The notes beneath the pieces were generated by a model. It did no database searches, was not told the DNA's origin, and worked only from the letters and a program-made list of their open reading frames with translations. Made by a program: the position numbers and the translations under genes. Positions 33,911-39,903 of a stretch of DNA of 64,000 nucleotides are shown here, in pieces (position 1 is the stretch's first letter; every line of letters begins with the position of its first letter). This DNA is from a virus. The stretch lies in IMG/VR virus record IMGVR_UViG_3300020404_000006, one strand, 5' to 3'.

Positions 33911-33937
33911 AAAAAACCTCTACAATATGTAGAGGTT
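33911..33937 (-). terminator. Rho-independent terminator after DUF4278 gene
   Basis: AACCTCTACA-TAT-TGTAGAGGTT followed by T-run on minus strand. Confidence 0.8.
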
Positions 33938-33968: not shown

Positions 33969-34112
33969 TCAGCTCTTAGATGCGAACTTGCGTTCTACCT
34001 TAATACCACGATACATTAGTTCGTGACGTTGCTTTTGAGCAGCTTCTGCGAGTACCTTTGCGTTGTACTCTGCGGTGTCATACTCGACACCTCTGTATGT
34101 GACCTTAGCCAT
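33969..34112 (-). CDS. DUF4278-family small protein (47 aa)
   Basis: MAKVTYRGVEYDT...LMYRGIK duplicated YRG motifs; AGGAG RBS. Confidence 0.85.
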   Translation of the reverse strand: MAKVTYRGVEYDTAEYNAKVLAEAAQKQRHELMYRGIKVERKFASKS

Positions 34113-34151
34113 TTGGTTTCTCCTGTAAGTAATAGGGGTTTGTGAAAACTC

Positions 34152-34333
34152 CGTTCCTTCAGTCGGCATTTGCGTCCCAGCACCCAGGCGTTGCGTCTTG
34201 TATAACAAGAACTAGTTCCGCCTTCTCGTACTCATTCATTGTGTTGTTCTTTACCACCCGATCTGTAAGATCGTATGCTTGGGAACACTCCAGTGAAGTA
34301 TAGAGTAGCAAGAGAGGTATCATGGGATGAACG
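34152..34333 (-). promoter_or_regulatory. Glutamine riboswitch-family aptamer 2 (glnA/Downstream-peptide type) with greatly expanded P2 loop
   Basis: CGTTCA-TCCCA...TGGGA-CGCAAATGCCGACTGAAGGAACG; directly upstream of DUF4278. Confidence 0.7.
34159..34323 (-). CDS. 54-aa ORF nested in aptamer 2 (MIPLLLLYTSLECSQAYDLTDRVVKNNTMNEYEKAELVLVIQDATPGCWDANAD)
   Basis: Hand-translated ATG..TGA, signal-like N-terminus, two Cys; not in ORF track. Confidence 0.65.
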   Translation of the reverse strand: MIPLLLLYTSLECSQAYDLTDRVVKNNTMNEYEKAELVLVIQDATPGCWDANAD

Positions 34334-34336
34334 ATC

Positions 34337-34397
34337 CGTTCCGTGTCGGCTTACTTGCGTCCCGCTTGGTCGCCAAAGGCAACTTGGGGGATGAACG
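34337..34397 (-). promoter_or_regulatory. Glutamine riboswitch-family aptamer 1
   Basis: CGTTCA-TCCC...GGGA-CGCAAGTAAGCCGACACGGAACG; P1 CGTTC/GGAACG. Confidence 0.8.
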
Positions 34398-34406
34398 TGT
34401 GTGTTA

Positions 34407-34435
34407 ATTATAACACATTTCAATTATTTATGCAA
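34407..34435 (-). promoter_or_regulatory. sigma70 promoter driving the riboswitch leader
   Basis: TTGCAT-17 nt-TATAAT, 10 nt upstream of aptamer 1. Confidence 0.8.
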
Positions 34436-34471
34436 GTTTTTTGTATCAATACCTACCGTAGTGATACAATT

Positions 34472-36007
34472 TTATGAAGATTTAAGATTGTCACCTAGCA
34501 CTAGAGTGTCTAGACCAGTTTCGTAAAATAGTTCCAAGGCATCCCCAAACCTTCCAGCTATGGGTTTACCACCATTATTTAGAGAGGTGTTGAGCAAGAC
34601 AGGTGATCCTGTCAACTTCTCAAACTCCTGTAGTAGACTGTAATAATCTTCCTGAGATTCATTTACTGTGTTGATTCTACATGTTCCATCTGCATGTGTG
34701 ATTGTAGGATACCTGTCTGGTTCTAATACATCAGTCACATATAACATGTATGGACTAGGACCATTCCAATCAAAATTTTCACTCACTTTCTCTTCTAATA
34801 CTGAGGCACCGAATGGTCTGAATGGTTCTCTGTGTTTTACCTTATTATTAATGTAGTCTTTACCATGAGGGTCAAAGGGGTTCATAAGAATACTTCTGTT
34901 ACCCAATGCTCTGGGACCTACCTCACCATGTCCTTGATACCATCCAACAATCTCACCTTTGGCGAGTCTCTCTGCGGTCTCCTTGATAGTTTTAGTGGAA
35001 GGTCTGTCAACAGGAGCCTGATCATCTTGCATGAAGGGGAATCCTTCTACAGGAAGTCTCATCATGTTATGTTCCCTTCTCAGAAACTCAATAGCACCGA
35101 GACTTAGACCCTGATCATATGCGTGTGGAGGTATGACCAGATTAGGTATAGCATCTTTCAATACCTTATTAATAATAGTATTTTGTGCTACACCACCAGA
35201 GTATCCCACTACATCATCTGGTTTGATGAACTCTTGGAAATGTCTGAGATAAATCTGTTCTGTATATTCATGTGCTGTATGAATATAATCCATGATGTAT
35301 TGTTGATCATGAAGATGTTGATCTATTACATCAAAATCCCATAATATTTCCAGATCATCTATACCTAGACTCTTATCACATACGTCTGGATTGTGTTTAC
35401 CAAACGCTTTCAGAGCCATGATCTTCCCTGCCTGATCTAAGTAGTGTCCACCTAATTGTAAGGCAGCACCCATCCTAGTCATAATAAATCCAAGACTGGG
35501 CGAACCCACTTGACTTGGATATATGCCTTCAGTCTTACCATAGTCTATGAGTTTATCATCTCTCCACACACTACGGTACATCCAATCATCACCAAATCCA
35601 TCAAAGACAAAGTGAAGATTAGGTTTGACCTTCATAGGCCAGAAACTTAGTGTATGTGCATAGTGATGATCTATTCTATGAATAGGGCATCTAAATCCCA
35701 AGTCTCTAAAGAAAGGTATTTCTACTACTTCTGATATCTCTTTGGAATTTATGGCAATGGATTGATGTACGACACCCATCCTTTCATATTCGGTTCCAGC
35801 ACAGTCCATGATGATACAGACACCATCAATAAACCAAGGTTGAATATTCCAATCCTCAAGTATTCTTGTCCATTGATATACTCCGTTCTCAAAACCAACA
35901 TGCTTACATTGGTAATCTCTCTCGAAAGATCTGTATCTTACAGTCTCACCATCATAGTATGTTACGTTTGCGTCATGAGCATCTAATCTCAAACCCAATA
36001 ATTTCAT
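34472..36007 (-). CDS. Carbamoyltransferase (NodU/CmcH family)
   Basis: HHYAH, DGFGD, GKIMAL..FG, GWYQG..EVGPRALGNRSIL, VKHREPFRPF, NTSLN. Confidence 0.92.
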   Translation of the reverse strand: MKLLGLRLDAHDANVTYYDGETVRYRSFERDYQCKHVGFENGVYQWTRILEDWNIQPWFIDGVCIIMDCAGTEYERMGVVHQSIAINSKEISEVVEIPFFRDLGFRCPIHRIDHHYAHTLSFWPMKVKPNLHFVFDGFGDDWMYRSVWRDDKLIDYGKTEGIYPSQVGSPSLGFIMTRMGAALQLGGHYLDQAGKIMALKAFGKHNPDVCDKSLGIDDLEILWDFDVIDQHLHDQQYIMDYIHTAHEYTEQIYLRHFQEFIKPDDVVGYSGGVAQNTIINKVLKDAIPNLVIPPHAYDQGLSLGAIEFLRREHNMMRLPVEGFPFMQDDQAPVDRPSTKTIKETAERLAKGEIVGWYQGHGEVGPRALGNRSILMNPFDPHGKDYINNKVKHREPFRPFGASVLEEKVSENFDWNGPSPYMLYVTDVLEPDRYPTITHADGTCRINTVNESQEDYYSLLQEFEKLTGSPVLLNTSLNNGGKPIAGRFGDALELFYETGLDTLVLGDNLKSS

Positions 36008-38385: not shown

Positions 38386-38469
38386 TGGGAGAGGAGGGAC
38401 TCGAACCCTCACGACATTGCTGTCAACAGATTTTAAGTCTGGTGTGTCTACCGATTCCACCACACTCCC
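38386..38469 (-). tRNA. tRNA-Leu(TAA)
   Basis: GGGAGTG acceptor, anticodon loop CTTAAAA, long variable arm, GTTCGAGTC T loop. Confidence 0.93.
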
Positions 38470-38472
38470 GAA

Positions 38473-38546
<74 letters not shown>

Positions 38547-38621
38547 TGGTAGGACTGTCGGGAATTGAACCCGATTGACTCCGTTATAAGCAGAGCGCAT
38601 TAACCAATATGCGACAGTCCC
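38547..38621 (-). tRNA. tRNA-Ile(TAT) with encoded CCA
   Basis: GGGACTG/CAGTCCT acceptor, CTCTG-CTTATAA-CGGAG anticodon arm, ends ACCA. Confidence 0.9.
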
Positions 38622-39794: not shown

Positions 39795-39823
39795 TGAAAG
39801 AGTGCGATGTTATGTGAGTAAAA

Positions 39824-39860
39824 TAGAGACGTAATTTAACGACCCATAGGTCTCGGTTAG
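39824..39860 (-). ncRNA. PhotoRC-II-like RNA motif in psbA leader
   Basis: ACCGAGACCTATGGGTCGTTAAATTACGTCTC with GAGAC/GTCTC pairing in psbA 5' UTR; family assignment from memory. Confidence 0.6.
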
Positions 39861-39903
39861 CGGGTCGAAGGAAGTGTTGAAATCAACACCCCTACATTTA
39901 TAT

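Follow-up and report, generated by a model that had tools for sequence, protein, structure and literature searches.

Introduction

The closest described relatives of the RNA element analyzed here are the two classes of glutamine riboswitch. Glutamine-I (glnA RNA, RF01739) is represented by the gifB/IF17 leader of Synechocystis (Klahn et al. 2018, PMC6212724). Tandem glnA RNAs were noted by Weinberg (2010, PMC2864571), the link of these RNAs to DUF4278 genes is also published (PMC2864571, PMC6212724), and host glutamine riboswitches turn translation on (PMC6212724). We have analyzed a double sensor of the glutamine type in a 64,000-nucleotide (nt) stretch of viral DNA (IMG/VR virus record IMGVR_UViG_3300020404_000006; hereafter the window), in which the second of two aptamers encloses a protein gene, designated ORF-B. 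All coordinates are positions in the window, and the whole cassette lies on its minus strand. An earlier note on this DNA, made from the letters alone, had described ORF-B as an open reading frame (ORF) nested in aptamer 2 upstream of a DUF4278 gene.

The cassette shares with glutamine-I the core, which consists of CGUUCA, a hairpin, GGACG(C/G)AA and GAAGGAACG; furthermore, the downstream gene belongs to the same DUF4278/IF17-like family, and homologues of aptamer 2 from phages that have it in compact form score above the RF01739 threshold. In contrast to glutamine-I, the variable hairpin of the phage element holds a complete protein gene, its core is also read as codons, it has no three-way junction or E-loop arm, and its closing-helix strands are apparently exchanged between the two copies. 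Known examples act on one gene, whereas the phage element encloses one gene and precedes another.

Glutamine-II (Downstream-peptide motif, RF01704; Huang et al. 2019, PMC6698751) is similar in that CGCA follows the hairpin and GGAACGG serves as the 3' strand, which another helix (P3 in the phage, P2 in glutamine-II) holds in its loop, so that a pseudoknot results. Nucleotides C1, G2, G18, C19, C39, G40, and G41 build its ligand site, its crystal is a glutamine-bound, strand-swapped dimer in which one molecule contributes 5' strand, hairpin, and ligand strand and the other molecule the 3' strand, and an aptamer made of two pieces works as well (PMC6698751). The swapped dimer and the two-piece aptamer are precedents for pockets assembled from non-adjacent parts. 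The phage element differs in that the swap is proposed to occur within one RNA and to be obligatory in some clades, with an inner core that is proposed to be circularly permuted, its 3' strand coming first. Additionally, it loops out about 150-450 nt of coding sequence, and its P3 helix includes a stop codon and reaches the Shine-Dalgarno sequence of the next gene.

The leader of Salmonella mgtA senses Mg2+ and contains the short ORF mgtL, a 17-codon regulatory peptide which senses proline or translation speed. Both mgtL and ORF-B lie within a sensing leader in which translation and folding may influence each other, but the phage ORF specifies a protein family of 53-56 amino acids, has no sensing codons, and shares letters with the ligand-binding core. 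In group I introns, for example T4 td with I-TevI, the ORF of a homing endonuclease is looped out from a peripheral stem; the RNA folds round a gene held in the loop of a helix, and translation into the core can disturb folding, as may be the case here. These introns are self-splicing mobile elements and their ORF encodes the mobility enzyme, whereas the phage riboswitch is unspliced and nothing about ORF-B points to mobility functions.

Glutamine riboswitches in T4-like cyanophages are mentioned in phage genome papers (PMC9964418), and a survey reporting two glutamine aptamers only in cyanophage genomes concluded that phages rarely use riboswitches (PMC5473149). A full-text literature search returned neither a gene inside a glutamine aptamer nor exchanged strands, in agreement with the earlier note, which knew of no description of this architecture; Ames & Breaker 2011 or Ren et al. 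2015 may contain a remark on it.

ORF-B and its overlap with the second sensor core

ORF-B (34159..34323, stop codon included) encodes a protein of 54 amino acids that belongs to phrog_504 and T4-like gene cluster 430 and is homologous to Syn9 gp197. It starts with ATG at 34323..34321, ends with TGA at 34161..34159, and reads W-D-A-N-A-D before the stop codon, all inside aptamer 2, exactly as first described. The stem that encloses it, P2b, consists of a 5' strand UCCCA (34323..34327), the final base of which is the A of the ORF-B start codon, and a 3' strand UGGGA (34175..34179), which is the Trp codon followed by the GA of an Asp codon. Between TCCCA (34327..34323) and TGGGA (34179..34175) lie 143 nt; the earlier note had given about 140 nt for the stretch enclosed by this stem and had correctly placed the ATG within its 5' strand. 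The adjoining segment (core b, 34163..34174) comprises the CGC strand of the ligand site and a linker and doubles as the codons D-A-N-A-D, as indicated by codon conservation. Core 2 as a whole is composed of a 5' half, CGUUCAUCCCA (34333..34323), and a 3' half, UGGGACGCAAAUGCCGACUGAAGGAACGG (34179..34151).

The P2b hairpin follows directly on CGUUC-A and is itself followed by CGC. Its strands were paired in 100% of the sequences in alignments of 71 and of 42 sequences. The only changes in the 5' strand are from C to U, which are compatible with G.U pairs, against a frozen GGGA.

The flanks of core 2, CGTTCA (34333..) and GGGACGCAAATGCCGACTGAAGGAACGG, match the compact glutamine aptamer core of phages P-TIM68 and AG-345-P14. 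Both carry the same tandem arrangement with a near-identical core, and a short hairpin replaces ORF-B. Their compact aptamer-2 homologues score 35.4 and 37.8 bits against the RF01739 threshold of 35. Because relatives without the ORF have a near-identical core and pass this threshold, ORF-B was placed in the hairpin loop of an otherwise standard glutamine aptamer, an assignment confirmed by these sequence comparisons. An Rfam search of the window at gathering threshold gave no glutamine match, aptamer 2 being missed owing to the 143-nt insert. Closing-helix strands CGUUC...GGAACGG are present in both window cores (34397..34393 with 34342..34336, and 34333..34329 with 34157..34151) and are kept in 133 related loci. 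All ligand-site nucleotides named for glutamine-II (PMC6698751) were found in both cores. We conclude that the sensor is real and that its ligand is presumably glutamine.

The nested arrangement was observed in 133 of 133 parsed related loci, representing 95 distinct regions. In these loci ORF-B starts directly after CGUU(C/G)AUCCC and ends with D-A-(N/H/Y)-(A)-D-stop-AG-(G/A)AACGG. Chance nesting is excluded because the same layout occurs in all parsed loci and relatives are found in 298 phage records.

The codons TGG GAC GCA (W-D-A) were the same in all 56 distinct ORFs, also at third positions, and synonymous diversity was 0.13 in the tail of ORF-B as compared to 0.65 in its body. The body is under selection at the protein level and the last codons are synonymously frozen by the aptamer core; the region is dual-coded, as had been supposed. 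Judged from these alignments, the glutamine-site strand is written in the five to six codons at the end of ORF-B, W-D-A-N-(A)-D. Gene and sensor share the start codon, the last codons, and the stop codon, and the comparison of relatives shows a dual constraint on them.

ORF-B as a protein gene

All 92 distinct nucleotide versions of ORF-B are open and encode 53-62 amino acids, while the other five frames contain 232-568 stop codons in total. Entropy in the body is 46.5, 24.4, and 66.1 for the first, second, and third codon positions, so that the third is the most variable, and the ratio of nonsynonymous to synonymous polymorphism (pN/pS) is 0.48-0.50. Invariant residues vary synonymously: Cys15 is encoded by TGT in 31 and by TGC in 25 cases, and Arg24 by five different codons (numbering by alignment columns). 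ORF-B matches phrog_504 with E = 7.3e-15 over residues 5-53 of 54. A profile search retrieved 983 protein clusters, nearly all from marine metagenomes, and the suggested search with tblastn, using the ORF-B peptide, identified the relatives in 298 phage records mentioned above. Homologues in S-SSM7 and S-SSM5 are annotated as hypothetical 'T4-LIKE GC: 430'. Taken as comparative evidence, these data indicate that ORF-B is a genuine protein gene.

An AlphaFold model computed from a 73-sequence alignment reached a predicted local distance difference test (pLDDT) score of 83, with helices at residues 13-25 and 31-44. The peptide has two Cys, as already noticed, and both (C13, C48) are invariant and located at the ends of the predicted helical hairpin. 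A search of Pfam gave no match for ORF-B, Foldseek with the AlphaFold model against the PDB found nothing better than E = 4, and a protein atlas search returned unnamed clusters only. The N-terminus contains a hydrophobic stretch of about 10 residues, has no basic n-region, and is modeled with low confidence; reading it as a signal peptide was not adopted, the stretch being too short.

In the window ORF-B has no strong Shine-Dalgarno sequence, the nearest candidate being GGAU, 10 nt upstream. ORF-B contains two separated Gln codons and no run of them. This, together with conservation of the protein in 983 clusters, rules out a leader peptide. The leader-peptide logic proposed in the earlier note does not hold either; ORF-B is a member of the phrog_504/T4-like gene cluster 430 family that is kept even by five contigs lacking aptamer 1.

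Pairing between the two sensor cores

Core 1 is glutamine-aptamer-like and spans 34397..34336. It consists of a 5' pseudoknot/P1 strand s1, CGUUC (34393..34397); a hairpin P2a (34360..34391), delimited by the Rfam alignment and free of an ORF here; core a (34342..34359), with the CGC strand of the ligand site, a linker, and G35 (nucleotide roles from PMC6698751); and a 3' strand s1', GAACG followed by G41 (34336..34341). After a linker of 2 nt follows the 5' strand of core 2, s2, CGUUC (34329..34333), identified from the sequence and its relatives. The 3' strand s2', GAACG with G41 (34151..34156), lies beyond the ORF-B stop codon.

The earlier note had treated aptamer 2 as an independent aptamer. 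This is probably not the case, as covariation pairs its strands with those of aptamer 1: s1 covaries with s2' and not with s1', and s1' covaries with s2 (G-C to C-G). In 24 distinct regions s1' is CAACG and s2 is CGUUG, and 8 further regions add s1 = CGUUU with s2' = AAACG. Region L079 carries the second exchange only, with CGUUU, GAACG, CGUUC, and AAACG in this order. The fifth pair is Watson-Crick in 95 of 95 regions for both s1:s2' and s1':s2, as compared to 56 of 95 for the textbook pairing of each aptamer with itself; in the variant regions the textbook fifth pairs would be C.C with G.G, or U.C with G.A. Among contigs with s2 = CGTTG, 49 of 49 have s1' = CAACG, although the search left the s1' base free.

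In a 42-sequence alignment the swapped structure had 100% paired cells and 26 compensatory cells, and 0 of 500 shuffles were as good. For the textbook structure no compensatory change was found, and each fifth pair contained 25-26 broken cells; this alignment does not support closing helices that are formed within a single aptamer. On a tree built without those columns, each fifth pair changed at least 3 times. Nearest-neighbour folding gave the swapped fold as the minimum free energy structure of the window (-73.7 versus -71.3 kcal/mol for the textbook fold); it was 6-9 kcal/mol better in the variant clades and 2.5-9 kcal/mol better overall. A scan for compact tandem aptamers with variant s2 gave random matches only.

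Most likely, the two sensor cores are interlocked and do not stand side by side, as far as covariation can tell. The outer pseudoknot s1:s2' would then span the whole gene, and s1':s2 would form a small hairpin in the inner core; the two molecules of the glutamine-II crystal exchange their strands in just this way. On our reading, the inner core is circularly permuted, with its 3' strand before its 5' strand, and both pockets may form in the swapped arrangement.

Helix P3 and RNA folding

A helix that connects the end of ORF-B to the next gene, P3, was absent from the earlier account of the locus. Its 5' strand, CUGAAG (34157..34162), was recognized by covariation and consists of the last base of the final Asp codon, the stop codon UGA, and AG; the 3' strand is CUUACAG (34123..34129). 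In the window CUGAAG faces CUU(A)CAG with one mismatch, giving five of six pairs, or with six pairs and one bulged A. Among relatives, (C/U)U(A/G)AAG pairs with (C/U)UU(U/C)AG. The final AG of the partner is the beginning of the Shine-Dalgarno sequence AGGAG (34124..34120) of the DUF4278 gene, so that P3 reaches 2 nt into it. The position of the partner relative to the Shine-Dalgarno sequence is fixed, although the loop between the two strands ranges from 21 to 55 nt. Opposite UAA stop codons there is a U in 19 of 19 cases, opposite UGA a C or a U, and an A.C mismatch is never seen. The type of stop codon changes at least 11 times on the tree. Among phylogenetically independent pairs, the P3 partner follows the stop type in 4.6 and the opposite is seen in 0 (median sign-test p = 0.06).

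Many relatives contain an extra conserved hairpin, ACGGAUCC-hairpin-GAGAAGGUUAA, between s2' and the DUF4278 Shine-Dalgarno sequence (for example L004:760-815, L022:865-905, and L154:1110-1160), which results in two classes of P3 loop length, about 22 and about 50 nt.

The interior of ORF-B, taken without the start and the last seven codons, folds better than dinucleotide shuffles, with a mean z of -3.39 for 36 diverse versions, 92% of which are below -2; the value of the window itself is -3.0, and random windows of this phage have a mean z of -0.51. ORF-A, a second nested gene found in relatives, has z -3.0. The DUF4278 coding sequence (33972-34109 and homologues) has a mean z of -2.3 in 30 homologues; since it also folds much better than shuffles, the whole small operon appears to be unusually structured RNA. 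RNAalifold applied across all clades found no conserved structure in the interior of ORF-B beyond the base of P2b. A clade-specific hairpin, CUGAU-AUG-AUCAG, covaries and thereby alters two amino acids together. The folding z-score of the whole leader, -0.87, was not significant.

Distribution of the nested genes

Syn9, S-SSM7, and S-SSM4 each have exactly one copy of ORF-B, located in the aptamer-2 slot. P-HM1 carries a distant relative, GC541, in this slot, and P-TIM68 with its compact aptamer has none. Very divergent proteins of 62, 57, and 58 amino acids occupy the slot in L131 (2736-2921), L100 (6431-6601), and L156 (825-1001), the last being GC541 of P-HM1. All three keep two Cys. Their core-encoded endings are D-A-N-D in L131 and L100 and D-A-K-A-D in GC541.

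A second gene, ORF-A (65-68 amino acids, T4-like gene cluster 429, Syn9 gp196), is enclosed by aptamer 1 in 26 loci and also in Syn9, Syn19, S-CAM1, P-HM1, and others (47 records), with P2a as its housing. Examples are L022:449-680, L154 (Syn9):692-925, and L156 (P-HM1):580-810. Its AUG follows directly on CGUUCAUCC, and its stop codon is part of the 3' stem or, where a second frame is used, of the core, at UAA. The closing stem covaries (UCC/GGA, UCUCAC/GUGAGA, UCUUAUG/CAUAAGA). An unannotated relative of ORF-A without an aptamer is located between hli and psbA in the T7-like cyanopodovirus P-GSP1 (L155:500-655). From this free-standing copy it can be argued that the nested genes are ordinary proteins moved into loops.

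A scan of 185,579 species genomes, one per prokaryotic species, found no host copy; the single match was a 10-kb contig of a metagenome-assembled genome labeled 'Euryarchaeota'. A homologue of ORF-B (tblastn E = 3e-9) is encoded on this contig, L153 (NHGE01000043.1), whose binning as 'Euryarchaeota archaeon TMED129' is probably an error, the DNA being that of a cyanophage.

In five distinct metagenomic contigs that lack aptamer 1 (L080, L082, L087, L088, L090), the upstream gene ends 1 nt before s2. These contigs retain P2b, P3, and the variant strands CGTTG and AAACG, which are now partnerless.

Cassette anatomy and genomic setting

The window stems from a T4-like cyanomyovirus; S-SSM7 and S-SSM6a are the records closest to it, with about 82% identity across this region. 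A carbamoyltransferase gene (36007..34472) precedes the cassette. A GTA-N8-TAC motif (34443..34456), resembling an NtcA box and placed inside an inverted repeat GTATCA...TGATAC, was recognized by inspection and precedes the riboswitch by 59 nt. Of 86 related loci, 54 share this motif, which mostly lies 58-60 nt upstream of s1 and is a candidate NtcA site. A late-promoter-like motif, (C/A)TAAATA, recurs between GTA-N8-TAC and the -10 box. The latter, TATAAT, lies at 34407..34412, likewise found by inspection. A consensus scan of the window gave no full sigma-70 match, the -35 element being weak; TTGAY-N16-19-TANNNT ends 5-12 nt before s1 in 52 of 86 relatives. Judging from these motifs, transcription probably starts a few nucleotides before the riboswitch.

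Downstream of aptamer 2, the Shine-Dalgarno sequence and the DUF4278 (IF17-like) gene occupy 33969..34124. The gene itself (34112..33969, ATG at 34112) encodes 47 amino acids and matches Pfam PF14105 with 26.9 bits against a cut-off of 25.3, and also phrog_5049. A predicted intrinsic terminator (33915..33937) ends the cassette. The locus is a self-contained cassette of promoter, double glutamine sensor, DUF4278 gene, and terminator.

Elsewhere in the window, a permuted tmRNA of the cyanobacterial type is located at 2146-2498 on the minus strand (Rfam 111 bits; ARAGORN tag peptide ANNIDTAANNIVAFSRVLTREFARTDELVTA). Three consecutive tRNA genes and a PhotoRC-II RNA (42.5 bits against a threshold of 39) lie at 38386-38621 and 39802-39879, both on the minus strand.

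Discussion

The explanation that we consider probable is a double-sensor cassette in which P2b has been stretched round a genuine gene for 54 amino acids, with interlocked cores and with translation and folding dependent on each other. From this layout we infer glutamine binding, competition with the ribosome, and a direction of switching. As the start codon of ORF-B is part of the P2b stem, geometry suggests that the sensor cannot stay folded while a ribosome translates the gene. Nascent RNA would permit early translation of the nested gene. To read ORF-B, a ribosome would have to open P2b, P3, and the structure around the ligand-site strand and, with its footprint on s2', the long-range helix as well; on reaching the stop codon it may dismantle both glutamine pockets. 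In the opposite direction, the start codon of ORF-B would be buried once the RNA has folded, a state that glutamine presumably stabilises. P3 would link termination at ORF-B to the access of ribosomes to the DUF4278 Shine-Dalgarno sequence, and the ORF-B protein and the IF17-like peptide would come under glutamine-dependent, mutually dependent control. The earlier note had likewise proposed that a ribosome unfolds aptamer 2 and that the folded aptamer hides the start. The geometric part of this proposal is supported, but the regulatory consequence is an extrapolation from it and received no support from the thermodynamic test of coupling. Host glutamine riboswitches turn translation on, but here P3 would be stabilised by the bound fold, and a modeled Shine-Dalgarno accessibility of about 0.4 supports neither direction for DUF4278.

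Several observations weigh against this explanation or parts of it. Aptamer 1 of the window stays below the Rfam thresholds (20.8 versus 35 and 22.3 versus 33). Five distinct contigs keep ORF-B without aptamer 1, and a complete sensor is therefore dispensable for ORF-B. A pN/pS of about 0.5 means merely moderate constraint on ORF-B. In the window s1 and s2 are both CGUUC, and s1' and s2' are both GAACG, so that it fits swapped and textbook pairing alike. The interlocking rests on just two variable pairs and few independent events, at least 3 for each, and matched flanks may travel together when phages recombine. Variant-directed scans supplied part of the data set, which biases the frequencies and leaves the association unbiased. 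P3 has just 5-6 bp and covers 2 nt of the Shine-Dalgarno sequence, and in a nearest-neighbour partition-function test of P3 coupling the accessibility of about 0.4 was obtained in every fold, also with a ribosome on the ORF-B stop codon.

Part of this evidence also bears on how the two cores pair. They might be ordinary tandem aptamers, whose ligand-bound form has the textbook pairs s1:s1' and s2:s2' and for which the swapped pairs are a ligand-free alternative kept complementary by selection. In 56 of the 95 regions, the window among them, both pairings suit all four strands, and a riboswitch requires a competing fold. C5:G36 is outside the positions conserved to more than 97% and away from the ligand (PMC6698751), so that a mismatch there might be tolerated. 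By a geometric estimate, furthermore, the 2-nt link from G41 of s1' to C1 of s2 may leave too little room for a complete pocket. However, both textbook helices are mismatched at once in 39 distinct regions and the swapped pairs never are; in those variant regions the textbook fold is 6-9 kcal/mol less stable, which weak glutamine binding is unlikely to repay. Additionally, the strand-swapped crystal form binds glutamine (PMC6698751). We regard ordinary tandem aptamers as a possibility to be taken seriously, although a minority one. A similar, tentative standing is given to an obligately strand-swapped double glutamine sensor with an outer pseudoknot of the glutamine-II type round a permuted core, in which the two variable hairpins serve as gene slots (gp196 and gp197 in Syn9). 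Ribosomes moving through the nested genes and glutamine binding would then act on each other, and glutamine would shut off the nested proteins by locking the start codons and set the IF17-like peptide via P3. If true, a single RNA would control three small proteins during infection, as a riboswitch gated by translation.

The relation of gene and sensor could also be looser. A tolerant loop may have taken up a small gene as passive cargo, translated independently while the riboswitch controls DUF4278 alone. P2 loops indeed accept inserts without an ORF (aptamer 1 lengths of 60-73 nt), compact versions without an ORF exist, the ORF-A relative of podovirus P-GSP1 is aptamer-free, ORF-B persists in the five contigs without aptamer 1, and the thermodynamic model shows no coupling. 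We consider this reading rather unlikely, given that in ORF-B, in GC541, and in ORF-A with its two frames the AUG lies in or against the stem and the stop codon in the 3' stem or the core with no spare nucleotides, that the ORF-B stop codon covaries with the helix touching the next Shine-Dalgarno sequence, that ORF-B is found nowhere else in the genomes checked, and that its start codon is geometrically unusable while P2b is closed. The insertion could instead have broken aptamer 2 and left decaying halves kept as codons of the protein end, in keeping with the failure of Rfam to detect aptamer 2 in the window and with the contigs without aptamer 1 (type D). This is very improbable: the 5' half CGUUCAUCCC, although non-coding, hardly varies, the W-D-A codons show no synonymous variation, s2 and s2' each covary with a partner that may be as distant as 270 nt, and the non-coding GGAACGG past the stop codon is conserved in all loci. 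Least credible of all is that no protein is made and that the RNA alone is functional, the frame being open as a side effect of selection for a long, structured extension of P2. The strongly structured interior (z -3.4), a local covarying hairpin that changes amino acids, the lack of a known domain or fold match, and the lack of a strong Shine-Dalgarno sequence in the window would agree with it, but the frame is open in all 92 versions and the other frames abound in stops, third positions vary most and invariant residues change synonymously, no interior RNA structure is shared across clades, the alignment yields a confident AlphaFold helical hairpin, and ORF-A relatives occur outside any aptamer.

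The element is a variant of a known riboswitch class that is widespread and is missed by standard scans; its layout occurs in hundreds of related phages including Syn9. Riboswitch aptamers are usually treated as compact non-coding modules, whereas here a conserved gene shares letters with the ligand site, and two aptamers apparently exchanging strands within one RNA break with the usual view. Riboswitches of phages are undercounted, as covariance-model scans miss elements such as this one, with relatives of its nested gene in 298 phage records and 983 protein clusters. Since Syn9, which has both gp196 and gp197, infects culturable marine Synechococcus, the system can be tested. The cassette links nitrogen status, through glutamine and possibly NtcA, to small phage proteins. 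Host relatives of the IF17-like peptide inactivate glutamine synthetase, and the cassette may show how abundant ocean viruses manipulate the nitrogen metabolism of their hosts.

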